Shown: piece after piece, positions 22,739 through 37,275 of the stretch | Layout of the letters: every line of letters starts with the position of its first letter | Position numbering within the stretch: position 1 is the first letter of the stretch | Source of the DNA: a virus | Virus record (IMG/VR): IMGVR_UViG_3300011443_000005 | Strand: one strand, 5' to 3' | DNA: 49,419 bases | Notes under the pieces: generated by a model | The model's input: the letters and a program-made list of their open reading frames with translations, nothing else | Database searches by the model: none | What the model was told of the DNA's origin: nothing | Program-made: the position numbers and the translations under genes

Positions 22739-22750
22739 AGCTATCTTTCC

Positions 22751-22804: not shown

Positions 22805-22857
22805 CCACCTGTTGAGTTCGTAAACTCACTGGAACGGTACCGAGGGGATTTGGTACC

Positions 22858-22867
22858 GGGAGTAACA
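22858..22867 (+). promoter_or_regulatory. Orphan copy of the GGGAGTAACA start-associated motif (no start codon follows)
   Basis: Exact 10-mer on the plus strand in the non-coding gap 22805..23040 of the minus arm, followed by ggcacagg rather than RRCAATG. Confidence 0.5.
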
Positions 22868-23040
22868 GGCACAGGAAATATACCCCTCCCTCTTCAGTTA
22901 GTCTAGCAGCCACGACAACCAAGCTCTTGCCTTCCTTATGAGGTACCAACGAAGAGCGGTGCGGTGCTGAGTTTTAATACTCGTAATGTTCGGTTGTCCG
23001 TACATACTTACTCCAGTGAATTTAAAAAATGAACTCGAAT

Positions 23041-23421: not shown

Positions 23422-23843
23422 TTTTTCTTCTCCTTCAAAATTTCTGGGTACCCCGGAGGCAACCCCACATTGGGGAAGCCGCTGGATTTATAGGGGTTTC
23501 CCGATGTTAGGGTGTACCTAACGAATTGTCGAAACTTGTTGTTAGGGGTTTGATAGCTTGAAAACACGATACAAAAAATGGTATGAGGGGGGCCACCTAA
23601 GCGGGTGGGGGGCTGATCGATCCTATTCATACCGGAACGGTCACTTGCAGATTTTCCTGAAGTCTCATGCTTAACCGCTATTACTCCCTGACGAAACACT
23701 CTGACAAAGCGGTATTACTCTCCCAGAGTGATGAAGAAAGCAGCTAACAGTTTCCAGTCCTCAAGCAACCAGATAATTTTGGTTTAACCACAACTAACCA
23801 TACTTGTTTATGCTTTGACCAACTGGAGTTGATTAAGTAGTTC

Positions 23844-24274: not shown

Positions 24275-24284
24275 GGGAGTAACA
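24275..24284 (+). promoter_or_regulatory. Start-associated motif GGGAGTAACA (copy 1)
   Basis: 3 nt upstream of TTG 24288. Confidence 0.6.
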
Positions 24285-24287
24285 GCC

Positions 24288-24509
24288 TTGGAATCATCCG
24301 CAGCTAAAACAAAACACGCGTATGCAATTGCAATAAGTCTCTCGTCTCTAATTTCTGACAACTGCTATCCCGAACATCTTTTGGACCCAAAAGGTAAAGC
24401 TCTTTGCAAACCAACAATGCAGCTTGCTCATCGGTTCCGAAGAGAGGCTCAAACCCTCACGAGAACCGACAAAAGGCTTTGCAAACAGTGTCTTCGCAGA
24501 GCGGTGTAA
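24288..24509 (+). CDS. Small basic protein (73 aa) with C...CxxC
   Basis: First ORF of the plus arm, with the motif-linked TTG start. Confidence 0.5.
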   Translation: MESSAAKTKHAYAIAISLSSLISDNCYPEHLLDPKGKALCKPTMQLAHRFRREAQTLTRTDKRLCKQCLRRAV

Positions 24510-24527
24510 TTGCACAACACGAATATA

Positions 24528-24537
24528 AGGAGTAACA
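24528..24537 (+). promoter_or_regulatory. Start-associated motif AGGAGTAACA (copy 2)
   Basis: 4 nt (agca) before ATG 24542. Confidence 0.6.
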
Positions 24538-24541
24538 AGCA

Positions 24542-24973
24542 ATGGCGTTTATGAAACCGGAAATTTACAAAGGTGGATACTTGGTTATCGATGGACCAAT
24601 GGGTACGGAATATCTACCCCACGAGATTGCAGACATCGATAACAAAACTCTAGAGGCTTGGAATAACCAAGAAGGAAACGAGCATAACTTACCCGGTTGC
24701 ATTCGAGGCTACGTAGAGAATCACTCCGCATATTCCATCGAACGGGAAGCCGGGATTCTCTCCCGTCTCTCCGCTTCCGGCTACATGGATTCCACACCTT
24801 GGGAACCGGGGGATTCCAACGACCTATGCAAAGCTTGGGATATTTGCCCTGAGTGTTTTGAACAATGCTGGGAATCCGAAACTTCCGATCGGTGTCCCGG
24901 TTGCAATGTGTCCTACCCACAAGACTACGATGGTTGCCGCAAGGCGGGTTGCAGCAATTGCAATGGGGAGTAA
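24542..24973 (+). CDS. Cys-rich protein (143 aa)
   Basis: The C-terminal 50 aa carry CPEC, CPGC and CSNC pairs (multi-zinc-ribbon-like). Confidence 0.65.
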   Translation: MAFMKPEIYKGGYLVIDGPMGTEYLPHEIADIDNKTLEAWNNQEGNEHNLPGCIRGYVENHSAYSIEREAGILSRLSASGYMDSTPWEPGDSNDLCKAWDICPECFEQCWESETSDRCPGCNVSYPQDYDGCRKAGCSNCNGE

Positions 24974-24975
24974 CA
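24966..24975 (+). promoter_or_regulatory. Start-associated motif GGGAGTAACA (copy 3)
   Basis: Its TAA is the stop codon of 24542..24973. 4 nt (aaca) before ATG 24980. Confidence 0.65.
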
Positions 24976-24979
24976 AACA

Positions 24980-25243
24980 ATGGAACGCATCGAAAACACT
25001 ATCCATAGCAAAGCTACAAGTCTTGGCTATCCGATCATCCGGGGAAACCCTAAAAAAATCGATGGAGTTTTGTGCACTCGATTCAAGAACAAGGAAGGAC
25101 AGGCAATCTACGTAGGCCAAGATTTTGATTACGCCAGACCCAACGGCGGAAAGATCGTAGACACTTGGCTACTCTATCTTGAATGTCCTACATGCTTTTG
25201 TACGTACAAACTTAATACCGAACATACTTGCAACAGGGAGTAA
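24980..25243 (+). CDS. Small Cys/His-containing protein (87 aa)
   Basis: ORF with motif-linked start; CPTCFC...H.C near the C-terminus. Confidence 0.6.
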   Translation: MERIENTIHSKATSLGYPIIRGNPKKIDGVLCTRFKNKEGQAIYVGQDFDYARPNGGKIVDTWLLYLECPTCFCTYKLNTEHTCNRE

Positions 25244-25245
25244 CA
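25236..25245 (+). promoter_or_regulatory. Start-associated motif GGGAGTAACA (copy 4)
   Basis: Its TAA is the stop of 24980..25243. 4 nt (agca) before ATG 25250. Confidence 0.65.
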
Positions 25246-25249
25246 AGCA

Positions 25250-25738
25250 ATGCTAAACTATCTCATTGAACATGAAAATAAGACCTACTCCCCCGATGGA
25301 GTAGTAACAACCCATCCCAATTGTACAATCTGCCATAGGGTGAACGATGGTACTAAATATGTTCTGGGTTATCTACCAGCAACGAAAGAAACAATCACTT
25401 GTTGTCTGAATTGCGCAAGCACATTCGAAAGGGAAGAACTAGACAAATCTGAAAAATCTGTCTGGTATATCCTATCTAAGACACCGGATAGCGATCCTCG
25501 AAACGCATACCCGAATACTTATCCTGCTTCTGGACAATGCTGGATAGGTAATGCTATGCGTGTTAGTGGTCGATACAAGTCTCGGAGAATCCATTCCCCC
25601 ATCGGAGGAAGAATTCAGCGCATCAATGTTTGGTTTAGTCACAACGATAAACACTATCATGGTGTAAATTTAGGAGACAATAATATTGTACGATGTAAGA
25701 GAATCAAACACAAAACAACTTATGGAGTAGTAAACTAA
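25250..25738 (+). CDS. Zinc-ribbon protein (162 aa), member of a 3-gene family
   Basis: NCTICHRVNDGTKYVLGY...ITCCLNCASTF resembles the CxTC...GIRVT...CxxC..F pattern of 32416..32631 and 46258..46491. Confidence 0.6.
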   Translation: MLNYLIEHENKTYSPDGVVTTHPNCTICHRVNDGTKYVLGYLPATKETITCCLNCASTFEREELDKSEKSVWYILSKTPDSDPRNAYPNTYPASGQCWIGNAMRVSGRYKSRRIHSPIGGRIQRINVWFSHNDKHYHGVNLGDNNIVRCKRIKHKTTYGVVN

Positions 25739-25828
25739 TGACGTTGCATGGAAACTGACAACAAAAGATGTCAAGACCTAGCGTCATGCATTATGAGTAC
25801 GCTTGGTTATAGATGGATTTAATCAAAA

Positions 25829-25838
25829 GGGAGTAACA
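25829..25838 (+). promoter_or_regulatory. Start-associated motif GGGAGTAACA (copy 5)
   Basis: 4 nt (gaca) before ATG 25843, in a 104-nt intergenic gap. Confidence 0.65.
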
Positions 25839-25842
25839 GACA

Positions 25843-26619
25843 ATGAATCTCGACAAAGTAAAAGACAGAATCCGTAAACTGCTTGCTATCGCCAACGATG
25901 ATAGTTCCGCCGACGGTGAAATATCAGCGGCGATGAAACTAGCAGAGGAAGCCCTAGAGAAGTATCACTTGGATAGAGCAGATGTTGAATCCCACGCAAC
26001 AACTGAGAAACCGCATACCGAAACACACATTGTTGAGAATTGTACGTTTCACGGTAAGCGTATGACTGCTTGGGAATCTCGTCTTTGGGTTGCTGTTAAG
26101 AAGCTAGTTGGTTCAGTCGGTGCTTACTCTGCAAAAAAGATTGTACCCAATGGAACATTCAAGGTACCTGAAAAACGGGAGGTACTTTGCTGGTATGGTC
26201 CAGCAGAGGATGTAGCAATTGCAACATCCCTATTTGCTGAATGGCGACACGTTATTGCAACCCTTGCCATTGCCAAGTTTCGGGGTTTCGCCCGCAATAA
26301 TGGGGCAAGGTATGCGCTTGGCTTTGCCGAGTCTCTGGTTGATAAGGCGGGAGAAGCAGACCAAAACCGACGCAAGCTCATTACCAATGCCACAACGGCT
26401 ATCGTCCATTGTACTTTCGGCAATCTCGGACAAGTCTTAGACCGCAAGCGAGAAGCTGCAACAGAATGGCTACGTAAGGAACAAGGTGTCCGACCAACTA
26501 GAGGATCAATCCGCCGTTGTTCAATCACAAGCAACAATTACGACGCGTATGAGGCAGGTCGAACCGATGGGCGCAATGCCAATTTCTCAGTTACCCAAAG
26601 TAAAAAACTAACCCACTAA
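25843..26619 (+). CDS. DUF2786-like protein (258 aa)
   Basis: The N-terminal KVKDRIRKLLAIANDDSSADGEISAAMKLAEEALEKY matches my recollection of the DUF2786 signature common in phages and plasmids. Confidence 0.5.
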   Translation: MNLDKVKDRIRKLLAIANDDSSADGEISAAMKLAEEALEKYHLDRADVESHATTEKPHTETHIVENCTFHGKRMTAWESRLWVAVKKLVGSVGAYSAKKIVPNGTFKVPEKREVLCWYGPAEDVAIATSLFAEWRHVIATLAIAKFRGFARNNGARYALGFAESLVDKAGEADQNRRKLITNATTAIVHCTFGNLGQVLDRKREAATEWLRKEQGVRPTRGSIRRCSITSNNYDAYEAGRTDGRNANFSVTQSKKLTH

Positions 26620-26640
26620 TAAAGGGAGGAACCACAAACC

Positions 26641-27210
26641 GTGAATACTCAAATAGTCGAAGATTCGACACATGTTCGAAAGATTCGAGAGATTCTACCG
26701 ACCCTAGAATACAAAGCGGTCTTTATACCACAATCTAAATCTCGTAACAAAGATGCTACAATACCAACACTCAATTGGCGGATATGTCTATCAAACCCCC
26801 CAAGAAGAGTTACTACTTTTGAAACAGACTACCAACAGGGGATAGGACACATTCCCAAGTGTCAGCAAACACATTCCCCAAAAGCAAAAACAGTAAACCT
26901 TGCACAATACGAAAGACAAGTAGCCGAGTCTGGCAAGTACTCAGAAAAAATACAAATGAATTCACTTTCTCTCTGGTTACCTCTCCCAAAACCCAACCTA
27001 GTTGATGTACTTTCCTGCTTAGTTCTAGAGTGTGATACATTAAACTATCCGGGCTTTGAAGATTGGGCAATGGAGTTTGGTTACGATTCGGATAGCCGTA
27101 AAACTAAACATCTTTACCAAAAATGTTTGGATGTCGCTCTTCGCTTCAAGTACTTCGTTGGTGGCGAAACAGTTATCAACCAGCTTGAAGAGGCTTTAAG
27201 GAATTGCTAA
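26641..27210 (+). CDS. Hypothetical protein (189 aa)
   Basis: GTG start with AAGGGAGG 12 nt upstream. No motif recognised. Confidence 0.6.
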   Translation: MNTQIVEDSTHVRKIREILPTLEYKAVFIPQSKSRNKDATIPTLNWRICLSNPPRRVTTFETDYQQGIGHIPKCQQTHSPKAKTVNLAQYERQVAESGKYSEKIQMNSLSLWLPLPKPNLVDVLSCLVLECDTLNYPGFEDWAMEFGYDSDSRKTKHLYQKCLDVALRFKYFVGGETVINQLEEALRNC

Positions 27211-27211
27211 T

Positions 27212-27514
27212 ATGGCATACATACACTTTGACAGTAAGTTTGTACCTTATGGCTTTGTCATTGCTAGAGAGCGAATACACTGGCGAAACTCACCAACAGA
27301 TTGTCTTATCCAATCTGATTGGGATTTCGCAGGGGTTGCGTCAACCATTGGTTGGATACCCTGCAAATGTGGTTCTTCCGATGGAACGATAAATTGTAAA
27401 GCCTGCAATCGTACCATTAGCGATATGCTATCAGAGGCATACAACTATATCCGAGCAAGAAACGGAAAACGCTACAAGTCACTAGACAGTTATCTAGGGG
27501 GACAAAATGGTTAA
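27212..27514 (+). CDS. Hypothetical protein (100 aa), CKC...CKAC
   Basis: ATG lies 1 nt after the upstream TAA. Confidence 0.55.
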   Translation: MAYIHFDSKFVPYGFVIARERIHWRNSPTDCLIQSDWDFAGVASTIGWIPCKCGSSDGTINCKACNRTISDMLSEAYNYIRARNGKRYKSLDSYLGGQNG

Positions 27515-27800
27515 GAAGAAAAAGAAGAAACACAAACCGCCAAAGTCAAAGCTACCCTTGACGTGGAAGAATTATAACGGTCTTCAGGAGTTGGACCGTC
27601 TGACACGACAAAAGAACGCCAAGCTTGCACCGTTAGGGTGCTCCGCTGATTTCGTACAATGGTACTATGATTTGTCTCGGACGGAACAAGGCACCTGGGC
27701 AAAATCAATTGGTTGGGTGGAGCTAGCTACCTACTCTATCTCAACTAAATGGCTTATAGATACCGCGTACCCTTGTGTGCAGAAAGTAGCAGGAAATTAA
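27507..27800 (+). CDS. Hypothetical protein (97 aa) with poly-Lys N-terminus
   Basis: 8-nt overlap with the upstream gene; starts MVKKKKKKHKPPKSK. Confidence 0.55.
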   Translation: MVKKKKKKHKPPKSKLPLTWKNYNGLQELDRLTRQKNAKLAPLGCSADFVQWYYDLSRTEQGTWAKSIGWVELATYSISTKWLIDTAYPCVQKVAGN

Positions 27801-27801
27801 C

Positions 27802-28164
27802 TTGGCATTGGTAAACCCAACACTCTGCCTAATCGAAGGGTGCGAACGTAGAGCGGTATGCCGCAAGGTATGTTTCTACCACTACCATTTATATCGTAAC
27901 AGTGGTAGACTACAAGAGTTACCCAAAACCGGAAGAGTAAAGATACGGTTTCATACAGTCCAACTGGATAAGTTACTCATTCAAAGGGCTTATAAGTTAG
28001 ACCTCTCCCCAACAGTATTAAAATATTCCATCCTGTTTGCGGGTATGGAGAAAACCGATAAGCGATTGTTGAAGCTGGTTGAACACTTCAACAAAATGTA
28101 CCATAGTGAGACTCATGCAGCGGTTGCGTTAGCCGCTGCAATTGAAGCCTCAAAAAGGGAGTAA
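27802..28164 (+). CDS. Zinc-finger protein (120 aa)
   Basis: C..GC.R....RK.C..HY..YR.SG motif at the N-terminus, a Cys/His DNA-binding-type motif seen in phage proteins. TTG start. Confidence 0.5.
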   Translation: MALVNPTLCLIEGCERRAVCRKVCFYHYHLYRNSGRLQELPKTGRVKIRFHTVQLDKLLIQRAYKLDLSPTVLKYSILFAGMEKTDKRLLKLVEHFNKMYHSETHAAVALAAAIEASKRE

Positions 28165-28166
28165 TA
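28157..28166 (+). promoter_or_regulatory. Start-associated motif GGGAGTAATA (copy 6, one mismatch)
   Basis: Its TAA is the stop of 27802..28164. 4 nt (gaca) before ATG 28171. Confidence 0.6.
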
Positions 28167-28170
28167 GACA

Positions 28171-28485
28171 ATGACACAACAATGGAAAATTAGCAAGACA
28201 GCTACAAAGGTTTATACCGATGAATTTGGGTGGACAAGGGTTATTTATCATAACGCTTGCGTTGTAAAGTTTAATCAAGATAAGATTATCCTGTCAATGG
28301 GTGGCTGGAATACCAACACTACCCGGACAAGAATGAATCAAGCGAGTAACCAATACGGATTAGGCTTTGGCGTACACCAAAAGAAAGGTACCCCATACGT
28401 ATGTATTGGTAGTGTGGACACAGAACTGAAAACGTCCAAGCCAAATATCATTGACCGCAAAACAGGGAAAGTGAGCACACAATGA
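28171..28485 (+). CDS. Hypothetical protein (104 aa)
   Basis: Motif-linked start. The GGWNTNTTRTRMNQ block looks like a conserved small phage protein family that I cannot name. Confidence 0.6.
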   Translation: MTQQWKISKTATKVYTDEFGWTRVIYHNACVVKFNQDKIILSMGGWNTNTTRTRMNQASNQYGLGFGVHQKKGTPYVCIGSVDTELKTSKPNIIDRKTGKVSTQ

Positions 28486-28700
28486 AACTCAAAATCGAAA
28501 TCGAGATGGAGAATGAAGCCTTTTTTCACAACGGAGAACCTACGAGAGAAAGTGAGGTGTCCAAGATTCTACACCAGTTTATACATAACAAAACCGATGA
28601 GGATTTTGACCTGGTCGGAAACACTTGGATATTGTTTGATTCCAACGGTAACCGAGTAGGTTACGCCAAAGTAATGAACGAAAGGATATCCAATGTCTAA
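28482..28700 (+). CDS. Hypothetical protein (72 aa)
   Basis: ATGA start/stop overlap with the upstream gene. Confidence 0.55.
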   Translation: MKLKIEIEMENEAFFHNGEPTRESEVSKILHQFIHNKTDEDFDLVGNTWILFDSNGNRVGYAKVMNERISNV

Positions 28701-28896
28701 AATTCTGCCTTTTACACACGTTGGAACGTATGAACCCAACGTCTGGCAACAGCAACAAATACAATTACTTGCTGAAGCCGCTAACAGACTCGGCCTAAAA
28801 TACACTCCTGAAACTTGTATGGATCAACTAATCCGACTTGGTTGGTCATTGTGGGGCGCTGACAACTTATCAAATGTGGAGATAACACAAGCATGA
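28693..28896 (+). CDS. Hypothetical protein (67 aa)
   Basis: 8-nt overlap upstream and an ATGA overlap downstream. Confidence 0.55.
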   Translation: MSKILPFTHVGTYEPNVWQQQQIQLLAEAANRLGLKYTPETCMDQLIRLGWSLWGADNLSNVEITQA

Positions 28897-29201
28897 AAGA
28901 CAAATCTTTTTCTATCGCTCTCCCGGAGAAAATGAGGATAGCGATTCTTGTCAGTTGTCCAGAAGAAATACAACAAGCGTTACGACACATTGTTATCCCT
29001 GGACCAGCAACCATTAAAGTACTCGTTACACCCGAAGAAAAGAAAGAAGAATCACTGATCAATGATTTGAATCAGGACTACACATTAGCCAAGAAGTGGA
29101 AGAGACGAGCAATCCAACACTCCGGGGTTCTGTGGCGGGAATACTTCGCTGAAGACCCAGAGCTAAACGACATACCTCGTGGGTACCCAGAAGTGGGCTA
29201 A
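28893..29201 (+). CDS. Hypothetical protein (102 aa)
   Basis: ATGA overlap with the upstream gene. Confidence 0.55.
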   Translation: MKDKSFSIALPEKMRIAILVSCPEEIQQALRHIVIPGPATIKVLVTPEEKKEESLINDLNQDYTLAKKWKRRAIQHSGVLWREYFAEDPELNDIPRGYPEVG

Positions 29202-29251
29202 ACCGCGAGCCGGATACCCTAGAATCGACGATCTTGGATTTTGTGACTACT

Positions 29252-29308
29252 TTCAGGGGTGGGGGGTTTCATCGCAGCTTAAGCGATGCCAGACCCCTTG
29301 CCCCTGAA
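29252..29308 (+). other. Long imperfect RNA hairpin (about 25 bp) between genes
   Basis: ttcagggg...cccctgaa outer stem, catcgc/gcgatg apical stem, middle section closed by G-U pairs that work only on the plus transcript. No U-tract follows. Confidence 0.5.
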
Positions 29309-29328
29309 ATACAGCAGGAATTTAGAAT

Positions 29329-29772
29329 ATGACACACACTGGAAAAGCCACCACGTTTATTCGATTCATTTACCCCAACGACGCGGAAGCGTTCAACGTT
29401 TGGGCTTGCGTCCAAGCTATTCGTCTAGCCCAGGTTTATAACCTCACTGTCCCGGATATTTTTCGGATGAACCAGTCAGCAAGATCACTTGCACACCTAG
29501 CCGCTAAACGAGAGTGGACAAGATTGCTGTTAGAAAATGTGAAGTACAAGCCGGAAAAGGGATTCATCCGAATTTGGGTAAGAGAGAAACCGATGGATAA
29601 ACCCCCAATGGGTTACAGAACTCTGGCTAGCAGACTACTGGAAAGATTTTCAGGTATGAGGATACGGGAAAAGAACCTTAAAGACACAAGAAAAATAGAT
29701 TGGCTAGCCGTAGCTAGACAAGCCAATGAAACAGATAAATTTTATGAGAAGCTTATCGGTCGAGAATCTTAA
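29329..29772 (+). CDS. Hypothetical protein (147 aa)
   Basis: ORF after the hairpin. Its stop overlaps the stop of the convergent gene 29769..30119 by 4 nt. Confidence 0.55.
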   Translation: MTHTGKATTFIRFIYPNDAEAFNVWACVQAIRLAQVYNLTVPDIFRMNQSARSLAHLAAKREWTRLLLENVKYKPEKGFIRIWVREKPMDKPPMGYRTLASRLLERFSGMRIREKNLKDTRKIDWLAVARQANETDKFYEKLIGRES

Positions 29773-30119
29773 GCTATCGGAATACCGGTTACCGTAAGCT
29801 TACCTGTTGTACAATCAGCAACACAATGGATGGAAAGAGTCTTAACAGCAAGTAGCCCTTCTCTGGAAACGTCAATCGTTTGATTGGCAGGCACAATAGT
29901 ATCAAAACTGGTTAGACTAGCTACAGCAGAAGGATTAACCTTAACCAGAACATTGCCAGCCGAATAATTGCTGACAAAACAAGGACTAACAGCCGTGAGA
30001 ATACCAGCAGAAGTACCCTCACTACGAAAGTCATACTCAACTACCGTACCAGCACCATGATTGCCACTGACCAAACGTGCAGGAAACGAAGATTTCATAA
30101 CCAGATGTCGCATACCCAC
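29769..30119 (-). CDS. Cassette gene 4: small beta-rich protein (116 aa)
   Basis: Last gene of the minus-strand cassette. Ser/Thr/Val-rich. Confidence 0.55.
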   Translation of the reverse strand: MGMRHLVMKSSFPARLVSGNHGAGTVVEYDFRSEGTSAGILTAVSPCFVSNYSAGNVLVKVNPSAVASLTSFDTIVPANQTIDVSREGLLAVKTLSIHCVADCTTGKLTVTGIPIA

Positions 30120-30136
30120 TCCCTTTCAACAAAACC

Positions 30137-30691
30137 TTAAACCTCGACCTCGAAATAAGCATACCACTTAATGACAACACGCTCATTCGTTGCCCAAGCA
30201 GAGGTAACGGTAGAGGTTTTTGTATAGCTGGTCAACGTCGTGGTAATGTCCTGAGAAATTTCGGAAATCAGAGTCTCCGTACCATCCACCGCACGATGAT
30301 ACATCCGGCCAATGATACGACGAATGGTTTCAAGATCACTCGCAGAATAATAAGCACCGAATTGCCAAGTAGCTGTTATCCCTGTGCAAACAACTTCATC
30401 CATTGCTCCCGCATTGGTAGCAAATTCCTCGATAAGACTTTCACAGGTAAGTACGGGGGTACAACTGGCAGTGTATTCAACATCATCATCATGCAATCCG
30501 CCAGTTTGAAGTATCCGATAACCGGAAATGTCAGATACATCATTACTCATCTGCAAAGTTTTGGTTGGTCCCGCAGCACTGCCAACAGTCATAGCACCAA
30601 TGTGTATAAGGGTTGGTCTAGACCGGGCATCGGACGGCAGGGTAACAATCGTGTCTGGAGCAGCTTCTATGTGTAGGTGTCCAGTTGCCAT
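30137..30691 (-). CDS. Cassette gene 3: hypothetical protein (184 aa)
   Basis: Starts 1 nt after the upstream stop. Thr/Ser-rich and beta-like. No motif recognised. Confidence 0.6.
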   Translation of the reverse strand: MATGHLHIEAAPDTIVTLPSDARSRPTLIHIGAMTVGSAAGPTKTLQMSNDVSDISGYRILQTGGLHDDDVEYTASCTPVLTCESLIEEFATNAGAMDEVVCTGITATWQFGAYYSASDLETIRRIIGRMYHRAVDGTETLISEISQDITTTLTSYTKTSTVTSAWATNERVVIKWYAYFEVEV

Positions 30692-31603
30692 TTACACGTC
30701 CATCACTTCATAAGCAACATGAAAGTCACCCGTTCTGGATGCAGTACCCACGGTAGCAGTAAGTTTCTTGTTTGTTGGTCCTACCCACTTACCCATCAAA
30801 GCACCACCACCACCAGGAGATTCGATTGAAGAAAAGATTGGATCAGAAGCAGTGTCAAATTGCAGAGTAAGTCTTGTGGTTCCCGCATTGCTACCAGCAG
30901 CCTTAATCATATAGCTACGTACTACAATCGCTTTGTTGGCTCCTGGAGCAGCTATTTGATCTACTGGTGTTGTTGTGGTTATTGTATCGTGTACGTACAG
31001 GGGATTTGCTGGGTTGGGATCAACCAATTGTTTGCCGTGTCTGTCAAAGACCGCATCCGTTCTATCCCCGGTAGCTACAGCGGTTGGTGCTGTTGCTGTT
31101 GCTACTGTTTTTCCACCAATCTTTATTGGGTTACCTGAATCCACCCCATCATGGGCCACATCACCCTGTACGGATACCGTAGCAGCAATGGATACGGGTT
31201 GTGTTGTTGCTCCCGTTGGGTCCGTTCGCACTTGACCATTCAAACCCAACCAAGCATCTACACGATCACCGTTAGCAACAGCAGTAGGTGTACCTGAAGA
31301 GGCTTTCCCACCAATTTTAATAGGACTACCTGTATCCGGTGCATCGTGTGCGGTGTCCCCTGTTACAGGTACAGGAGTAGTAAAAGTTACTGGTTGGGAG
31401 GTTGTACCTGTTGGGTCTGTCTTTAAGGCACCGTTAAGATTAAACCAAGCGTTAACTCTATCGCCGTTGCTTACCGCTGTTGGTGTACCTGATGCAGCTT
31501 TACCACCTATTTTGAGTGGGTTACCTGTATCCACATCATCATGCGGAACATTGCCCTGTATCATAGGCATGGAGTAACCCAAAGCTAGAGTATAACCCAA
31601 CAC
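30692..31603 (-). CDS. Cassette gene 2: repeat-containing fibre-like protein (303 aa)
   Basis: Contains 2.7 tandem 65-aa repeats (HD..D.GNPIKIGGK..SGTPTAV.NGDRV.AW..LNG...TDPTG.T.QPV). The fibre/receptor-binding call is inference. Confidence 0.65.
   Translation of the reverse strand: MLGYTLALGYSMPMIQGNVPHDDVDTGNPLKIGGKAASGTPTAVSNGDRVNAWFNLNGALKTDPTGTTSQPVTFTTPVPVTGDTAHDAPDTGSPIKIGGKASSGTPTAVANGDRVDAWLGLNGQVRTDPTGATTQPVSIAATVSVQGDVAHDGVDSGNPIKIGGKTVATATAPTAVATGDRTDAVFDRHGKQLVDPNPANPLYVHDTITTTTPVDQIAAPGANKAIVVRSYMIKAAGSNAGTTRLTLQFDTASDPIFSSIESPGGGGALMGKWVGPTNKKLTATVGTASRTGDFHVAYEVMDV
31010..31543 (-). repeat. Tandem 195-nt (65-codon) coding repeats, 2.7 copies
   Basis: Repeat units are residues 21-85, 86-150 and 151-198 of the 303-aa protein. 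The similarity is also visible at DNA level. Confidence 0.8.
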
Positions 31604-32004
31604 TATTTATACTCCACACCAAAGGCAGTAAAGGTTAGATCAGCTAGGTTCGCGGTGAAGACAACCAGTTCATGTCTAGGATACAAACTCAAACCGCTAA
31701 TAAACATTGGGTTACCTGGGTCTACCGGTTGATCAAACAAAAAGACTTGAGCACTAGCTTGATCTCCTGAGTCATTAGCTATTGTTCCCATTTTGAAGGT
31801 TCTTCTTACGGAACCAATGTTGCAGACCAGGATTAAACCTATTTCGATGGTTTGGTTTACTTGAGCAAGAATGAAGGAATACCAGTTTGCAGTAGGAACA
31901 CGAAGAGCAGTCGCATTAGCGGAAGAAAGAGCACCGACAGTGCCAGACTGCCCTACCGAACTTGATCCCGGAATTCCACCACCACCAGCCATGCAGGAAT
32001 TCAA
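31603..32004 (-). CDS. Cassette gene 1: hypothetical protein (133 aa; 129 aa if ATG 31992)
   Basis: First ORF downstream of the leftward promoter at 32170..32199. No clear SD for either the TTG 32004 or ATG 31992 start. Confidence 0.5.
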   Translation of the reverse strand: MNSCMAGGGGIPGSSSVGQSGTVGALSSANATALRVPTANWYSFILAQVNQTIEIGLILVCNIGSVRRTFKMGTIANDSGDQASAQVFLFDQPVDPGNPMFISGLSLYPRHELVVFTANLADLTFTAFGVEYK

Positions 32005-32061
32005 ACAGGTTTTGGTTGGGAGTCAAGTTTAGGCGTAGGGGTTGGCTCCTCCCCGCCTCTT

Positions 32062-32080
32062 GGTTTCCCGCAGGGAAACC
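32062..32080 (-). other. 8-bp hairpin in the cassette leader (ggtttccc gca gggaaacc)
   Basis: Perfect inverted repeat within the leader of about 160 nt predicted for the cassette. Confidence 0.45.
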
Positions 32081-32169
32081 TCTTATAGATATAACAACAA
32101 AAACCCCACCCTCGTAAAACACGCAGGTGGAGAAAAAATCACCCATACACCCGATGATGTACGAGGGGG

Positions 32170-32199
32170 GTTATAGGGGGGAGGAAAGAATTTTGTCAA
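32170..32199 (-). promoter_or_regulatory. Sigma70-type promoter facing the cassette
   Basis: Minus strand reads cTTGACAaa - 18 nt - TATAAC (-35 at 32199..32194, -10 at 32175..32170). Confidence 0.5.
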
Positions 32200-32210
32200 G
32201 AGGAAGTACT

Positions 32211-32228
32211 TTGTGAATCTTTTCACAA
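32211..32228. promoter_or_regulatory. Operator 1: perfect palindrome TTGTGA-atcttt-TCACAA (CRP-family consensus core TGTGA-N6-TCACA)
   Basis: Read directly. Its centre is about 23 bp upstream of the centre of the leftward -35 box. Confidence 0.7.
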
Positions 32229-32321
32229 TCTTTCCTGCTGGATGACCCCGAAAACCACGATTAGTAGGGAAAAGATCGAGAAAAAGCCTCTCGTCTTCCG
32301 GCGATGAATACCAGCAAAAGA

Positions 32322-32339
32322 TTGTGAAAATTGTCACAA
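32322..32339. promoter_or_regulatory. Operator 2: perfect palindrome TTGTGA-aaattg-TCACAA
   Basis: Read directly. Its half-sites are identical to operator 1. It lies 111 bp from operator 1 and about 54 bp upstream of the rightward -35 box. Confidence 0.7.
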
Positions 32340-32381
32340 AGCCCAGAGGGTAAAATAATCTAAAAAAATCTAAAAGAGTTG

Positions 32382-32409
32382 TTGACAAGATTAAGAAGCT
32401 TGGCAGAAT
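32382..32409 (+). promoter_or_regulatory. Sigma70-type promoter for the resumed plus arm (possibly leaderless)
   Basis: gTTGACAag - 16 nt - CAGAAT. ATG 32416 begins only 7 nt after the -10 and has no SD. Confidence 0.4.
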
Positions 32410-32415
32410 ACCAGC

Positions 32416-32631
32416 ATGTTAGCACAAGCAGTCAATGTGCAGTACCGATGTGACACCTGTAAGCAAATTACAGATACTTGGATAGGTATCCGAGTAACGG
32501 GTGATCTTTTTCATCGGATTTGTGCAGATTGCTTTTTCAAAGAGGAAAACGATGGCAGCGAAGAAAGCAAAGGGCAAAAGCCCAAAGCAGCCGGGATCAA
32601 CGAACGGGTTCAAACTGGTAAACAAGGATGA
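32416..32631 (+). CDS. Small zinc-ribbon protein (71 aa), family member
   Basis: YRCDTCKQITDTWIGIRVT...ICADCF matches YTCITCGKNKETMLGIRVT...CSMECSEAF of 46258..46491. Confidence 0.55.
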   Translation: MLAQAVNVQYRCDTCKQITDTWIGIRVTGDLFHRICADCFFKEENDGSEESKGQKPKAAGINERVQTGKQG

Positions 32632-32869
32632 GGTATCCTTTACCCAGCGGTCTCGCGGGGGTAGATGGAAGCCCTTGATCCAAGCCGCAATTGAAAACCC
32701 GGAGCAGGCTATCCTCATCCCATTGGAGGGAGATGAAGAAGAGCAGAAGGCGTCATACAAAAACTTTTCGCAGGGCATTTACCACCAGGCAAAAGCACTT
32801 AACGTATCTGTGTCGGTTGGACGAACCGATGACGGCGAGACTATGGTCGTCTGTCTGCGAAATGAATAG
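32552..32869 (+). CDS. Hypothetical basic protein (105 aa from ATG 32552)
   Basis: AGAGGA SD before ATG 32552 (MAAKKAKGKSPKQ...). The track ORF starts earlier at 32501. It overlaps the previous gene by 80 nt. Confidence 0.5.
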   Translation: MAAKKAKGKSPKQPGSTNGFKLVNKDEVSFTQRSRGGRWKPLIQAAIENPEQAILIPLEGDEEEQKASYKNFSQGIYHQAKALNVSVSVGRTDDGETMVVCLRNE

Positions 32870-32883
32870 GTTTAGTAGCTTAC

Positions 32884-32955
32884 GACTGCTTACACCCTTA
32901 CCTCCTCACGGGGATTCAGGTTTTTGCGATGGCTTGAGTCCGGGTGTAAGCAGTC
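32884..32955 (+). other. 72-nt structured RNA element (14-bp outer stem plus 9-bp inner stem)
   Basis: gactgcttacaccc / gggtgtaagcagtc are perfect. The inner ggattcagg / cttgagtcc stem needs two G-U pairs, which are possible only on the plus transcript. Confidence 0.5.
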
Positions 32956-33081
32956 TCTAAAATGGTGGACCTCCGCAACCGTTGCGGTAACGGGCTAACT
33001 GTCAATCACGGGGCAGGATGTCAAAGTTTAACTCACACACCCTCCACAGACTAGTGTGACACGAACGGAGAGCGGTTGCCG

Positions 33082-33300
33082 ATGGTCACCAAAGAAGAGC
33101 GAAAACAAGTTTGGGTAGTCGGTCAACTTCATTATTGGGACAAACTGAAGAGCACCCCGCAAATTAACGTGATAGATGATTGCGGGTCCATTGGCTATTT
33201 ACCCGTATTCGAAACCCGCGAACAAGCTGAGTTGGTTTCCCGTGATAATTTGATTTATGGAATGCACACATGCCCAAGACCAGTACAAGAAAACCAATAA
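33082..33300 (+). CDS. Hypothetical protein (72 aa from ATG 33082)
   Basis: GGAGAG lies 9 nt upstream of the ATG. The track start is a TTG two codons earlier. Confidence 0.5.
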   Translation: MVTKEERKQVWVVGQLHYWDKLKSTPQINVIDDCGSIGYLPVFETREQAELVSRDNLIYGMHTCPRPVQENQ

Positions 33301-34100
33301 GTCTACCTGTTGTGGGCGACTATCCAGTAGCAGGTAAAGACTATACTTTGGCACTGCCTAAAGGGTATCTCTCGGTAAGCCAGATTGAGAAGTACCTGAA
33401 CTGTCCAGAAGCATATCGACGAGCGTATGTCGTGGGAGAAAAACAGGAAACAAATAGCAATCTTTGGTATGGCTCAATGACCGCTTTAGCTTTAGCCCAC
33501 CTACATAGGGGCAAATACACACCTGTTAAGATTGCAAAGGAAATCAAAGCCCACAAGAAAGAATGTGACAATTGGGAGTCCAGACATAGTGTGGAGGGTT
33601 GTATTGGTTTTGTTCTGGACTGCATGGAGGCATATCAAAAAGACGGAGTAGCCAAACCGAGAAAGAACGGTAAGCAAGATGGAGTTGAGGAAGAGTTTGT
33701 AATAGAAGTTGCTGGAGTAAAAGTCAAAGGCGTCATTGACTTGGTAGAGAAGCAGAGAGTAACAGATTTCAAGACTACAGGCAATGCTTCTGGTTATCTA
33801 CCTGAGTCCAGCATACAACTAGCCATATACGCCCTAGCTACTGGGGTTTCCAATGTCGGATTCAAAAGTTTTGTGCGGAACTACAGCGGAGAGTATACAA
33901 AGATGGTAAAAGACTACACCATGCTAGATTTGAAAAAGGTACGAGTTTGGTTGGAAAGAACCGTGGCAGAAGTAGCAAGAGGAATCTCCTTGGGTGTCTT
34001 CCCCCTCACCAACCCAATGCGAAACAAGTTATGTTGCGACACCTATTGCAGCTTTCATCCAACGTGTGCAGTTAACTGGAAAAGGAAAATCAAATGCTAG
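33270..34100 (+). CDS. Cas4/RecB-family PD-(D/E)XK exonuclease with Fe-S cysteines
   Basis: GVIDLVEK...VTDFKTTG (D..E.K / DxK core), QLAIY (QxxxY), one N-terminal Cys (YLNCPEAY) plus C-terminal CCDTYCSFHPTC. Confidence 0.75.
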   Translation: MPKTSTRKPISLPVVGDYPVAGKDYTLALPKGYLSVSQIEKYLNCPEAYRRAYVVGEKQETNSNLWYGSMTALALAHLHRGKYTPVKIAKEIKAHKKECDNWESRHSVEGCIGFVLDCMEAYQKDGVAKPRKNGKQDGVEEEFVIEVAGVKVKGVIDLVEKQRVTDFKTTGNASGYLPESSIQLAIYALATGVSNVGFKSFVRNYSGEYTKMVKDYTMLDLKKVRVWLERTVAEVARGISLGVFPLTNPMRNKLCCDTYCSFHPTCAVNWKRKIKC

Positions 34101-34387
34101 AAATGTTAATAGCGGAACATAGTATCGCTTGGTATCTCACGCAACCAGACGGTGCAAGAGTGGTGATTCTAGAATTACCGACAAGACCAAAAAATCGTAC
34201 TGATGTTTCCGCCAAACTACCCCAACAGTTTTTTGATGACATCCACAGAGCAATGACAAGGACGTTAGGCTATGCTGAAGAACTCAAAGCAATCAAAGAC
34301 GCTATCGCAGACTGCGAAGACACAACTTCCATCGACCTTGGAAAAGGCTACACTTGTACCTGCAAGTGTCATAAACCTATCGGGTAA
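34094..34387 (+). CDS. Hypothetical protein (97 aa)
   Basis: 7-nt overlap with the nuclease stop. C-terminal CTCKCH. Confidence 0.5.
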   Translation: MLEMLIAEHSIAWYLTQPDGARVVILELPTRPKNRTDVSAKLPQQFFDDIHRAMTRTLGYAEELKAIKDAIADCEDTTSIDLGKGYTCTCKCHKPIG

Positions 34388-36512
34388 ACCCACAATCCTT
34401 TGCTTCGGTGAGACTCCAGGAATAGAGGATGTCCAGGAGGGACAAGCATTCGCTGGACGAGCAGGGAAGCTGCTTCGGAAACTCATCACCCTGCACCTGC
34501 CCCATTGCCGTGTTGTCCTCGACAACGTGTGTCCCGAAGTCCTGGCCGGGGGACATGGCAAACCCAACGCGGATATTCTCAAGAAGTACAAAGCCTACAG
34601 AGAAGAATCCGTAACCACTTGGCAACCCTCTGTGATTGTCCTGGTTGGGGCTTACGCGATGAACACAGCGGGTCTGCGGGGTACTGCTGGAATTGTTCGC
34701 CGAAATGCAACCACCGTACTTTACCACGGCAGACCGGCGGTGCTTTCTGTTCATCCAGCCTATGTGCTCCGCAATCCAGCGGAAATCAAACTACTTCGTA
34801 GAGTTTTTGAAATCGTGGAGGCGGAATTAAGAGGCGGAAAGGAAGTCCAAGCTCCCCGATCACGCAATGGGCTGACCTTGAATATTTCAGCAAGTTTAGA
34901 CCTGGAAACAGAAGGACTGAACCCAAGGGGGGGACGAATACTTACTGCTGCAATGAGTAGTAAGAAGCAAACAACTTGGATAGCTGCACCAACACTAGAT
35001 ACTATACAACTTTCTCCTAAACCCGTTATCTTCCACAACGGCAAGTTTGATATGGCTTGGTTGCAGACACACGGTTTTCAATTGCCCGCAAGTGTGGAAG
35101 ATACCCTTATCATAGCTTGGCTAATTGACGAGAATGATAAGAAAGACCTAGGTACACTTGCACAACGATACTTAGGTGTTCCCGCGTGGTGGCTGGACAT
35201 CGATCTGAAACACACAACTGAATTACCTACAGAAGTATTAGGTAAGTATAATGCTCTTGATGCACACTATACTTACCAACTGCGGAATAAACTTTGGCCG
35301 GAACTTACCAAACAACAACAACAGCTTTGTACTGACGTTCTCTTCCCCATGACAAAGCTTTTGGCAGAGATGGAATGCCGGGGGTTCAAAGTTGACGGCA
35401 CAGTATTTGAGAAAATTTGTACTAACAACCAGAAGTTAATAAAGCAGCAGGAAAAGAAACTCCGATCCAAGTACGGAGAAGAAATTAACTTTCGTTCAAC
35501 TACCGATTTGAAAGAGTTGGTCTATGGCAAACTCGATTATAAAGTGGGTGGACTAACCAAGGCCAAACAACCCGCTGTTGACGCTGACACATTGAGAAAG
35601 ATTTCTCCCAAACTCGCGGACTTGGCCGATTACCGTTGGCAATTGTGGTTTGAGTCCAATGTAGCTAAAGGTTGGGCGAAGCGAATTACCTCTCAAGGTT
35701 TTTTGCACACGAATTACAACTTTGGTCATGTTGTTACGGGTCGGTTAAGTTCGTCCAATCCGAACATGCAAAATGTGGATCGGGATGGGGTTCAACGTCT
35801 TTGCCTTGTTTCTCGGTTTCCTCGTGGGAAGATTATTCAATACGATTACAAAGCCCACGAGTACCGGATTAAGGCTGCCGAAGCAGGAGAGACAAAGCTT
35901 CTTAAACAACTATCCGATTCGTCCTTTGACCCACACGAGGAAACACGAACGTTGCTCCGTACCAAGTATGAGATTGTTGTAGATAGGCCGAGAGCAAAAA
36001 ATGTGAACTTCTCCGTAATCTACGGAATTAGCCCTCACGGTTTGTTCGGAAAGTATGAAATACCAATTAAAGATGGGCAGTTAATTATACCTGCTTGGTA
36101 TAAACTCTACCCAAGAATCAAGGCACACAATGATTTAATTCTGAAAAACTATGAAGAGAAACGAGAGGTTGAGTCGATATTTGGTTGGAAGAGAAGATTC
36201 AAACCTGTTGAGTTGGTAGATTTGGGAAGTCGCAAGTTTGATGCACACCAGCGGAATCAAGCATTGAACTTTGGAACACAGAACGCAGCAGTAGTGATCT
36301 GCTACATGGGAATGTTAGCACTTGATCGCTGGCTGACAAGACACCGAATGAAGAGTATCATTATCCACCAGATACACGACTCTGTTGTGGTAGACGCACA
36401 CCCGAAAGAAGTAAAGGCCCTGGAAAGAGAAGTTCCAGAAGTGTTGACAAATCTGAAACTACCAATGAGGATTCCTTTAGCTGTGGAGGCTAAAGTCGGG
36501 GACACCCTGTAG
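34272..36512 (+). CDS. polA: Family-A DNA polymerase with 3'-5' exonuclease and an N-terminal UDG-like (family 4/5-type) domain
   Basis: UDG motifs GETPGIED..G.AFAGRAGKLL and SVHPAYVLR. Exo motifs LDLETEGL, HNGKFD, YNALDAHY. Pol motifs DYKAHEYR, RAKNVNFSVIYG, IHQIHDSVVVD. The true start may be downstream of 34272 (116-nt overlap with the previous ORF). Confidence 0.9.
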   Translation: MLKNSKQSKTLSQTAKTQLPSTLEKATLVPASVINLSGKPTILCFGETPGIEDVQEGQAFAGRAGKLLRKLITLHLPHCRVVLDNVCPEVLAGGHGKPNADILKKYKAYREESVTTWQPSVIVLVGAYAMNTAGLRGTAGIVRRNATTVLYHGRPAVLSVHPAYVLRNPAEIKLLRRVFEIVEAELRGGKEVQAPRSRNGLTLNISASLDLETEGLNPRGGRILTAAMSSKKQTTWIAAPTLDTIQLSPKPVIFHNGKFDMAWLQTHGFQLPASVEDTLIIAWLIDENDKKDLGTLAQRYLGVPAWWLDIDLKHTTELPTEVLGKYNALDAHYTYQLRNKLWPELTKQQQQLCTDVLFPMTKLLAEMECRGFKVDGTVFEKICTNNQKLIKQQEKKLRSKYGEEINFRSTTDLKELVYGKLDYKVGGLTKAKQPAVDADTLRKISPKLADLADYRWQLWFESNVAKGWAKRITSQGFLHTNYNFGHVVTGRLSSSNPNMQNVDRDGVQRLCLVSRFPRGKIIQYDYKAHEYRIKAAEAGETKLLKQLSDSSFDPHEETRTLLRTKYEIVVDRPRAKNVNFSVIYGISPHGLFGKYEIPIKDGQLIIPAWYKLYPRIKAHNDLILKNYEEKREVESIFGWKRRFKPVELVDLGSRKFDAHQRNQALNFGTQNAAVVICYMGMLALDRWLTRHRMKSIIIHQIHDSVVVDAHPKEVKALEREVPEVLTNLKLPMRIPLAVEAKVGDTL

Positions 36513-36634
36513 GAGAAAATGATGAACGCGATACTGTTTTATGAGTTGGCGAGGCACTTGGCAAAGGTTTCACACGATTTTATCAACGCCGTGTTGGAGG
36601 AGTAGCAGTCTAGATAGAGTTTGTCTGAACTAGA

Positions 36635-36644
36635 AGGAGTAACA
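36635..36644 (+). promoter_or_regulatory. Start-associated motif AGGAGTAACA (copy 7)
   Basis: 3 nt (gca) before ATG 36648. Confidence 0.6.
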
Positions 36645-36647
36645 GCA

Positions 36648-36899
36648 ATGGAAAGTGTACGAGTCGAATTGTCAATCAAACCGGTTGGAGGATTCCTGGG
36701 GGTAACCCTTTCCGCAGCGGTGGAGACTACCCTTGGGGCGAAGGAGACACACGCCCAAGCCTTGAAACGTGCAGAGAAAACCGCTCTTGACTATCTCGAA
36801 AAGACAAAGAGCATGGACAACTTACAAGACTTGACGATAAAAGCTGCCCATAGCTTGAAGCGTGTGGCTGAAGAAGAGGGCTTAGTCCGTGGTCGATAG
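36648..36899 (+). CDS. Hypothetical protein (83 aa from ATG 36648)
   Basis: Motif-linked ATG. The track ORF starts at TTG 36621. Confidence 0.55.
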   Translation: MESVRVELSIKPVGGFLGVTLSAAVETTLGAKETHAQALKRAEKTALDYLEKTKSMDNLQDLTIKAAHSLKRVAEEEGLVRGR

Positions 36900-36922: not shown

Positions 36923-37264
36923 ATGCGTTGTTCCAAAATTCAATGCTTATCGTGTAAAAAAGAGATGGGTTTTGGTGGTGATCCTGTATTGTGTGAAACG
37001 TGTATAGCTATTCGACGACTTCACCCCGAAGAACAAGTGAACACAATGGGTACAAGTCCAGAGCCAGAAGCACAAAAGGCATATTCTGGTAAGTTAGAAG
37101 TACCTATGACAACTGCGGAGTGTAGGCTACGACGATTAAAAGAACACTGTATTGCTGAGATAGATACTCTCTTGCCGTCACAGGCATACGAGGAAAGAGA
37201 TGCGGCATTCTCGACTGTGCGTTCGATGATTTTGTTTATCAAGGCAGGTATAACCCGTAACTAA
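36923..37264 (+). CDS. Zinc-ribbon protein (113 aa)
   Basis: CLSC...CETC at the N-terminus. Confidence 0.55.
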   Translation: MRCSKIQCLSCKKEMGFGGDPVLCETCIAIRRLHPEEQVNTMGTSPEPEAQKAYSGKLEVPMTTAECRLRRLKEHCIAEIDTLLPSQAYEERDAAFSTVRSMILFIKAGITRN

Positions 37265-37275
37265 GGAGTCAGGCA

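Follow-up and report, generated by a model that had tools for sequence, protein, structure and literature searches.

A start-linked extended Shine-Dalgarno cassette in the non-structural arm of a metagenomic phage, an apparent analogue of mycobacteriophage start-associated sequences

Introduction

Start-associated sequences (SAS) are known from mycobacteriophages of Cluster K (Pope et al., 2011; PMC3203893) and have since been surveyed in 188 genomes (PMC12699233), yet their function was still open in 2025 (PMC12699233). About half of the SAS copies have an upstream inverted-repeat pair, called ESAS (PMC3203893). In this study, we analyzed the IMG/VR virus record IMGVR_UViG_3300011443_000005 (49,419 nucleotides; the whole stretch is hereafter called the window), a near-complete phage genome of ~49.4 kb whose source is metagenome assemblies alone, and examined a short motif, RGGAGTAAYA, that stands immediately upstream of the start codons of seven of its genes. 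An original prediction made from the DNA letters had noticed this motif, compared it with SAS and held that it implies a dedicated factor, protein or RNA, that recognizes these leaders.

Several other systems provide points of comparison. Stoperators of mycobacteriophage L5 and of Cluster A are asymmetric DNA sites of ~13 bp for the immunity repressor, without a fixed start-codon register. The mRNA sites of CsrA follow a degenerate ANGGA consensus and often lie in a hairpin loop, and systematic evolution of ligands by exponential enrichment (SELEX) gave RUACARGGAUGU. In phage T4, the RegB/S1 site is an 11-nt single-stranded GGAGRAYARAA that occurs at Shine-Dalgarno (SD) sequences of early genes and at some start-less leader positions, and by which early mRNAs are inactivated, the endoribonuclease RegB cutting GGAG between G and A (Durand et al., 2006; PMC1702504). 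Finally, the cassettes called PeSLs in T4-type phages are conserved regulatory repeats between small variable early genes (PMC2839356, PMC4122927).

Start-linked motif copies and their significance

RGGAGTAAYA was found before the starts at 24288, 24542, 24980, 25250, 25843, 28171 and 36648, separated from the start codon by 4 nt in five copies and by 3 nt in two, so that the full consensus read RGGAGTAAYA-RRCA-ATG, a cassette of 16-17 bases. The start codon was ATG in six of the seven. All start-linked copies lay within 24.2-36.7 kb, in the rightward non-structural arm, and five of them were on consecutive genes; none of the structural genes had the motif. The genes led by it are presumably early, judging by their position in the genome. 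According to the stops of the open reading frames (ORFs), the TAA of the motif doubled as the upstream stop codon in three copies and stood alone in four, exactly as had been proposed. One copy belonged to the first gene of the arm and three occupied 6-nt junctions, whereas the remaining three were 104, 135 and 32 nt away from the upstream gene.

The motif was strongly over-represented. At up to one mismatch, GGGAGTAACA had 16 matches in the window against 3.3 expected, a number reached in 0 of 100 shuffles, and the 16-mer at up to three mismatches had 8 matches against 1.5 expected. For the exact 10-mer, the earlier estimate of about 0.09 chance copies was reproduced (0.094), compared with six copies found. 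TAACA directly followed GGAG in six of the ~28 starts that bear GGAG (binomial P ~3e-12), which bears out the view that SD pairing explains the GGAG part only. By inspection, UAACA showed no pairing with the 3' tail of 16S rRNA, and the near-invariant TAACA and CA cannot pair with it; the anti-SD used for this comparison was a generic bacterial one, from which the 16S rRNA of the host may differ. The other 59 starts of the window had weak and heterogeneous SDs, with GGAG in 21 of them and a spacer of mostly 7-8 nt, and no position-specific spacer sequence was visible among them.

Substitutions within the cassette were not evenly spread. Five of the seven differences among the five ungapped copies fell in the two RR positions (P ~4e-4 if uniform over 17 positions, for copies that are not phylogenetically independent), and TAACA and CA therefore look constrained. 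Paralogy was rejected, as there was no pairwise similarity among the seven downstream proteins, and so was a longer shared repeat, as the aligned sites lost similarity outside approximately -18 to +3. Both results add to the earlier argument that the motif is no by-product of a conserved C-terminus.

The sites also appeared to be open at the RNA level. The predicted cost of opening the region from -18 to +10 was 5.6 kcal/mol for the seven genes versus 9.4 kcal/mol for the 59 others (Mann-Whitney P = 0.0009), and the motif sites were predicted to be single-stranded. Four copy contexts that were folded locally (three of them start-linked) had no excess structure, with fold z-scores of 0.2 to 1.2 for three rightward leaders and -1.3 for the leftward one.

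All seven start-linked copies are on the plus strand. The first copy of the rightward arm, GGGAGTAACAGCC-TTG (24275-24290), precedes the ORF 24288-24509, whose TTG at 24288 is the sole start without support from public gene callers and was assigned from the motif itself; this copy may be a leader copy, similar to STAB-SD, instead of marking a true start. The second, AGGAGTAACAAGCA-ATG (24528-24544), has a free-standing TAA and leads gene 24542-24973, which encodes a Cys-rich protein of 143 aa. The stop codon of that gene (24971-24973) is the TAA of the third copy, GGGAGTAACAAACA-ATG (24966-24982), before gene 24980-25243, and the stop codon of the latter (25241-25243) is in turn the TAA of the fourth, GGGAGTAACAAGCA-ATG (25236-25252), before gene 25250-25738. 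The fifth copy, GGGAGTAACAGACA-ATG (25829-25845), leads gene 25843-26619, a member of DUF2786/DUF7168. The sixth, GGGAGTAATAGACA-ATG (28157-28173), lies before gene 28171-28485 of the Kyano_Gp96 family; its TAA (28162-28164) terminates ORF 27802-28164, and a TAG comes next in frame. The seventh, AGGAGTAACAGCA-ATG (36635-36650), precedes gene 36648-36899, between the genes for PolA and the single-stranded DNA-binding protein (SSB). The looser relative reported previously was also present, as AAGGAGTCAGGCA-ATG (37263-37278, plus strand), before the gp32-like SSB gene 37276-37992. Searches of Pfam, PHROGs and PDB with the motif-led proteins gave no family assignments other than DUF2786/DUF7168 and Kyano_Gp96.

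Two side observations concern individual copies. A seven-codon mini-ORF (25813-25836, MDLIKRE*) upstream of gene 25843 ends at the TAA of the fifth copy, and it could be a coupling leader peptide or a coincidence. In addition, two copies (window 24529-24541 and 25237-25249) share GTAACAAG, an 8-mer match to 16S rRNA in the sense orientation and not a complementary one; this sequence is shared with CGUAACAAGG, the universal 16S rRNA segment at the 1492R primer site. An 8-mer match to an rRNA of 1.5 kb is not improbable by chance.

Comparison with described systems

With regard to SAS, the motif agreed in five of the eight features listed, namely the placement in the non-structural arm, the distance of 3-7 nt to the start, the preference for ATG, a prevailing orientation with odd start-less copies, and a stop codon that sometimes falls inside the motif; the copy number comes close. 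Both are short asymmetric repeats with an SD core and conserved positions unable to pair with 16S rRNA; both stand a few nucleotides upstream of mostly ATG start codons (3-7 nt for SAS, 3 or 4 nt here); both are restricted to the non-structural arm, where they lead genes of unrelated families; both largely keep one orientation, with an occasional start-unlinked copy and sometimes an upstream stop codon inside the motif; and just as SAS is not found in other phages or in the host, the present sequence appears to be private to one phage. The differences were equally clear. The sequences are unrelated (RGGAGTAAYA-RRCA versus GGGATAGGAGCCC), no match to the 13-bp SAS consensus was found at up to two mismatches, and the GGAG core alone is common. 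The stop codon is 3' of the SD here and 5' of it in SAS. SAS copies number 11-19 per genome, compared with seven start-linked, one looser and three to four start-less copies here, two of them on the minus strand, and SAS mostly follows gaps of more than 50 bp, whereas three copies here are in the 6-nt junctions. ESAS-type 17-bp imperfect inverted repeats were not shared upstream of the stand-alone copies, where conservation ends at -18. SAS is kept across subclusters, at non-orthologous genes, whereas relatives of this unrelated phage, which has a probable planctomycete host, carry different private cassettes, and the collections searched held no close relatives. Thus, the likeness to SAS that had been suggested holds for layout and distribution and not for the consensus or the ESAS repeats, and the motif is best described, by its letters and placement, as an analogue of SAS and not a member.

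The T4 RegB/S1 site, with SAS the closest analogue, is the best mechanistic precedent for an extended SD that is specific to an early class. It resembles the present motif in its single-stranded GGAG with an A-rich 3' extension at early-gene SDs, in the enrichment of A and C 3' of GGAG, and in some leader copies without starts, and RegB marks early mRNAs as a class for shut-off. On the other hand, the RegB consensus is degenerate, whereas the UAACARR tail is near-invariant here and fits four to five of the seven tail positions: when GGAGUAACARR was set against GGAGRAYARAA, positions 6, 9 and mostly 10-11 agreed with the consensus, positions 7-8 disagreed, and a U is tolerated at position 5 (PMC1702504).

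PeSL cassettes are similar in being short conserved regulatory repeats between small variable early ORFs of a hyperplastic region, and PeSLs double as recombination points that shuffle unrelated genes (PMC2839356, PMC4122927), for which recombination at the present motif would be the conjectural counterpart. They differ in that PeSLs are longer composites of terminator and early promoter acting on transcription, whereas a 17-nt translation-initiation region is conserved here. Stoperators share the asymmetry, the repetition in short intergenic spaces and the co-orientation with transcription; in contrast to them, the motif has a register fixed at 3-4 nt, conservation that continues into the ATG, and the SD as part of itself.

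Distribution of the sequence among relatives

Pattern scans of IMG/VR contigs for the 17-mer and the 16-mer gave single occurrences only, at chance level, and across 764 kb of fetched loci, from TerL relatives and other contigs, the 9-mer was no commoner than expected by chance. As far as the available data go, the motif sequence appears to be private to one phage. The same phage was found in ENA ERZ27267742 (a contig of 49,437 bp), Logan SRR6448456 and JGI 3300011434, all 99.98-100% identical to the window and thus of no use for footprinting. Its nearest terminase relatives are ~50-kb contigs whose TerL proteins are about 43-48% identical.

The layout of the cassette was more widespread than its sequence. 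At the first early genes of the nearest TerL relatives, the order of SD, stop codon, a few nucleotides and ATG recurred, in each case with a sequence of its own. The clearest example was L053 (contig SRR31655976_108812, 50,979 bp; TerL ~47% identical), in which GGAGCTAGGACGATG was present four times against 0.03 expected, with a fifth copy carrying an insertion; this cassette, which appears to be a private one of the same architecture, is clearly significant. Other loci were suggestive of private cassettes: L052 had GGAGCCTGA/TAG-NCC-ATG variants (weakly significant), L122 had the GGAGACCACG and GGAGCCAAAACC types, and L177, a CsrA-carrying phage contig, had AGGAGCGMWACR six times against 0.8 expected, the patterns for L052 and L177 being set post hoc. 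Absence of the motif from related phages had been named as evidence against a function. The sequence was indeed absent from them; nevertheless, this does not refute a function, because L053 carries a significant private cassette of the same architecture and others carry looser ones.

The early region itself is hyperplastic, with only 2 of 17 early proteins having homologues in five TerL relatives. PolA relatives in IMG/VR were 22-29% identical over most of the protein and of no use for motif conservation. Contigs with homologues of the DUF2786 gene were considered as comparators and rejected, as they belong to unrelated phages whose sites are plain GGAG. Among the motif-led genes, 28171-28485 alone had a counterpart in a relative, namely 474-818 (minus strand) of L123, a Kyano_Gp96 family gene with 42% identity. 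The L123 gene is preceded by GGAGAGACA-ATG, which has AGACAATG in common with GGGAGTAATAGACA-ATG and lacks the TAAT block.

A separate kind of repeat was seen in eight distant TerL relatives (31-36% identity), each of which had its own motif of 9-13 nt, present 8-16 times per 12-22 kb and on both strands (for example GCAGAGACAGGGC, AAGCCGGGAGAG, CTGCGGAGG and ACGGGAACGAGTC). These motifs sometimes form a hairpin pair and often lie a few nucleotides 5' of an SD. They were judged to be a different phenomenon, being on both strands and not start-linked.

Copies without a start codon

In the whole window, GGAGTAACAG at up to one mismatch had 17 matches, ten of which were in non-coding or junction DNA, although such DNA makes up 7.5% of the genome. 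Three non-coding copies had no start codon at the proper distance (22859, 36599 and, on the minus strand, 23678), compared with ~0.22 expected in 3.7 kb (Poisson P ~0.0015). The copy AGGAGTAGCAG (36598-36608, plus strand) shares its leader with the seventh start-linked copy, 37 nt upstream of it, and has TAG for TAA, so that a stop is kept. GGGAGTAATA(G), also read as GGGAGTAATAG (23679-23688, minus strand), belongs to the leader that reads leftward within the divergent intergenic region and is accompanied by GGAGAGTAATA, a second and weaker copy on this strand, ~34 nt upstream.

The third, GGGAGTAACAGGCACAG (22858-22874, plus strand), is one of the two orphans reported earlier, both of which exist. 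It extends to GGAGTAACAGGCACAG, which matches the cassette at 14 of 16 positions, and both mismatches change the ATG to CAG; judging by this pattern, random decay would rarely yield such a copy. The other orphan, an exact 10-mer at 8867-8876 on the minus strand, lies inside a structural gene for a 991-aa protein, in frame as G-G-V-T, and may be coincidental (probability of at least one chance copy ~0.09). Ten of eleven motif copies were co-oriented with local transcription, the exception being that at 22858, where the minus strand, presumably the locally transcribed one, reads the anti-motif UGCCUGUUACUCCC.

The 22858 copy sits in a gene-free gap of 525 nt (window 22515-23040) between two leftward genes, and this gap folds far better than shuffled sequence on either strand (z ~-5). 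Within it, the structured non-coding stretch at 22750-23040 on the minus strand, which contains the copy, is closed by a long-range helix of ~25 bp (~23037-23008 with 22840-22812) and continues with a GC-rich 14-bp hairpin (22806-22764) and a U-rich tail. Based on these predicted folds, the stretch is a candidate 3' untranslated region element or small RNA that would carry the anti-motif. Predicted duplexes of the anti-motif with the seven leaders ranged from -18 to -22 kcal/mol, compared with -4.5 to -14.6 kcal/mol for 19 of 20 control starts. No Rfam match was found for the stretch or the motif, and neither the 22.5-23.0 kb nor the 23.4-24.3 kb non-coding region had homologues in any fetched locus; comparable gaps in relatives look coding. 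Another possibility for the gap, which lies just 5' of the terminase module, is a packaging (cos/pac) site.

Proposed explanation and its alternatives

Taken together, the motif is very likely an RNA-level cassette for translation initiation and coupling of a non-structural, presumably early, gene class. GGAG, whose distance of 8-9 nt to the start codon is normal, would pair with the anti-SD of 16S rRNA; UAA, 0-1 nt 3' of the SD, would stop ribosomes arriving from upstream and at three junctions would allow termination-reinitiation coupling; and the spacer, rich in A and C and poor in G and U, would keep the site single-stranded, followed by CA and AUG. Upon this, a regulator specific to the phage and acting in trans might recognize the 10-nt core GGAGUAAYAG as a whole; it would treat early mRNAs as a class and would most likely silence them by blocking or cleaving the SD, in the manner of T4 RegB/S1. 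The constrained tail, the start-less copies, the full-length copy without ATG and the private code led us to favor slightly the addition of such a regulator, and the combination of initiation cassette and dedicated reader is put forward as a tentative but plausible reading. The motif does not in itself imply a dedicated factor, however, as had been claimed, since most of the data can be explained by a strong, coupled ribosome site that acts in cis and was spread by recombination; the start-less non-coding copies and the non-uniform substitutions move the idea of a factor up somewhat.

As a rough split among candidate readers, the largest share, itself low, goes to one of the many orphan proteins being an unrecognized endoribonuclease or RNA-binding protein. 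Two more specific candidates are each somewhat less likely: the phage CsrA encoded at 43448-43651, and an antisense RNA from the 22.75-23.04 kb stretch with the exact complement, for which the chance is the same as for CsrA. A broader version, in which each phage of the lineage, probably one that infects planctomycetes, would place a private "address code" in its immediate-early ribosome sites to be read by a co-evolving phage-encoded trans factor, is speculative and seems improbable but not negligible. In such a scheme the factor (the antisense RNA with UGCCUGUUACUCCC, CsrA or another RNA-binding protein) would silence all early genes once take-over is complete, with the start-less copies as extra targets or decoys.

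The phage csrA gene (plus strand, 67 aa, two GGA motifs in its own leader), which had been mentioned previously, was confirmed as a member of PF02599 (69.7 bits, E 2e-19). Its product presumably keeps the RNA-binding residues of E. coli CsrA (L2, L4, R6, V40, V42, R44 and I47). The gene lies ~19 kb further along the rightward arm, and its product would therefore appear later than those of the first early genes. Compared with known CsrA/RsmA leaders, a GGA motif overlaps the SD and the phage genome itself encodes a CsrA, and the copies at 36598 and 36635 are 37 nt apart, a spacing that a CsrA dimer can bridge. In contrast, UAACA 3' of GGA is outside CsrA specificity, and the leaders here are unstructured and mostly have one site, only the 36.6-kb leader among the start-linked ones holding a second copy. 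ANGGA fitted six of the seven copies, which is weakly discriminating because most SDs fit it. Phage CsrAs, found in 81 GenBank phage records, are not rare, which likewise speaks against this candidate. As an observation on its own, two phage-like contigs of ~50 kb had CsrA genes within their replication modules (at 9426-9620 in one and at 10001-10201 in L177); one of the two has an integrase and the other has PolA, uracil-DNA glycosylase (UDG) and PD-(D/E)XK. CsrA thus seems to recur among phages that share this environment and host group.

Several points weigh against a cassette with a dedicated reader. The known specificity of CsrA (GGA, usually in a short hairpin loop) does not require UAACA, and hairpins presenting GGA were absent from the four copy contexts folded. 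Searches of the 64 window proteins (Pfam and PHROG, PDB) revealed no RegB-like or other RNase except the PD-(D/E)XK nuclease, with a structural homologue still possible. About half of the anti-motif is hidden within a hairpin of its own, whose opening costs 6-9 kcal/mol, and minus-strand transcription of the structured stretch is something that we infer from gene orientation and a terminator-like hairpin only. The location of five of the seven copies on consecutive genes is what local spread predicts. Moreover, the L052 and L177 patterns were defined post hoc, no relative is close enough for conservation or covariation (nearest TerL ~48%, other contigs 99.98-100%), and the phage is known from metagenomes alone.

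The most serious alternative, which is possible although we regard it with some doubt, is that the cassette acts in cis only, as a very good, unstructured and coupling-competent ribosome site used directly by the host ribosome through SD pairing and S1. Near-identity would then be due to descent, early genes having been gained or swapped by recombination at the junction as a "linker", comparable to the PeSL cassettes or to lambdoid phage boundary sequences, without any dedicated factor, purifying selection would keep the stop codon and the open spacer, and the start-less copies would be scars of lost genes or STAB-SD-like stabilizers of ribosome binding. The canonical SD with its normal spacing, the low opening energy, the real stop codons in three copies, the run of consecutive genes and the hyperplasticity of the early region all fit well with this explanation, as do the stop codon at the same place between SD and ATG in relatives, a looser form (GGAG-N5-6-AC-N-ATG) common to related and other CsrA-carrying phages, and the precedent of PeSL-mediated shuffling, by which regulatory cassettes are repeated between early ORFs (PMC2839356, PMC4122927). 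However, a generic optimum should also be expected at highly expressed late genes, where the cassette is not used; five invariant bases are not needed for an open spacer, and the differences cluster at two positions; the 22858 copy, with both mismatches in the ATG, is no randomly decayed start; 17 nt is a short stretch for homologous recombination; and private sequences of other kinds are in use in L053 (clearly) and in further relatives (loosely) despite what is presumably the same anti-SD. Almost no credence remains for ordinary SD sites combined with chance or compositional bias, with nothing meaningful beyond GGAG: GGAG at 7-9 nt is a normal SD in this genome and the in-frame orphan at 8867-8876 fits chance, yet the match counts and the association of TAACA with GGAG given above refute such a reading.

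It is also very unlikely that the motif is a DNA-level operator, that is, an asymmetric 10-mer bound as double-stranded DNA by a phage regulator such as the XRE-type helix-turn-helix (HTH) protein encoded at 40460-40750, which would block transcription of the early arm as do the stoperators of mycobacteriophage L5, a precedent mentioned in PMC3203893, with an incidental overlap with ribosome sites. The asymmetry and length (~10-13 bp) of the motif, the co-orientation of ten of the eleven copies with local transcription, the start-less copies in leaders and intergenic DNA, and the presence of an HTH protein in the phage are consistent with an operator. A DNA operator needs, however, neither the 3-4 nt register to the start codon held by seven copies nor conservation continuing through CA-ATG, and the SD itself is within the motif. 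In addition, no integrase or lysogeny module was found among the window proteins scanned, and the sole anti-oriented copy (22858) is in a structured, RNA-like region.

The initiation cassette thus provides an independent second example of the unexplained SAS phenomenon, in an unrelated phage, with a probably different host phylum and a different sequence but the same logic. This independent instance, together with the private version of at least one relative, favors the view that phages repeatedly use extended ribosome sites tied to a gene class as a strategy for early control, and that these are not an oddity of mycobacteriophages. If an address code with a co-evolving factor were true, it would supply a mechanism for SAS-type motifs, for which there has been none since 2011, and this instance offers testable candidates: the 10-nt core, the co-encoded CsrA, the exact antisense copy in an RNA-like region and the decoy-like start-less copies. 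The cassette may also serve planctomycete genetics as a compact, strong and coupling-competent ribosome site.

Phage genome, host and other observations

Structural and packaging genes run leftward from ~23.4 kb and include TerL (18673-20562), whereas small ORFs of unknown function run rightward from ~24.3 kb and are followed by replication genes for a UDG-exonuclease-PolA fusion, the gp32-like SSB, a DnaB-like helicase and the PD-(D/E)XK nuclease (33270-34100). A near-identity search with 24-30 kb of the window found no DNA-level similarity to GenBank phages, tRNA and Rfam scans of the window gave no matches, and a scan for sigma-70 promoters and terminators was at background level and uninformative.

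The phage also encodes a GroES (window 43964-44272), which was 44-54% identical to GroES of Planctomycetota in nearly all of 51 genome matches, and the named homologues of its CsrA were planctomycete proteins. Therefore, the host is probably a planctomycete, as far as these protein similarities indicate. To our knowledge, few phages of Planctomycetota have been sequenced.

Some further features were noted along the way. The fusion protein is encoded by a single ORF of 746 aa (window 34272-36512) that combines a uracil-DNA-glycosylase-superfamily domain, a 3'-5' exonuclease and a family-A DNA polymerase. Inside the rightward non-structural arm, five ORFs run leftward as a block (window 29769-32388, minus strand). 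Its 303-aa product (30692-31603), which had no family match, contains three diverged repeats of ~50 aa, spotted by eye, of the form H-D-x-x-D-T/S-G-N/S-P-I/L-K-I-G-G-K ... G-D-R-x-D-A-W. Finally, one TerL relative (L051) has a tandem heptamer array, (CAACTAA)n, at ~18750-18810, just 5' of a structural gene encoding 948 aa.

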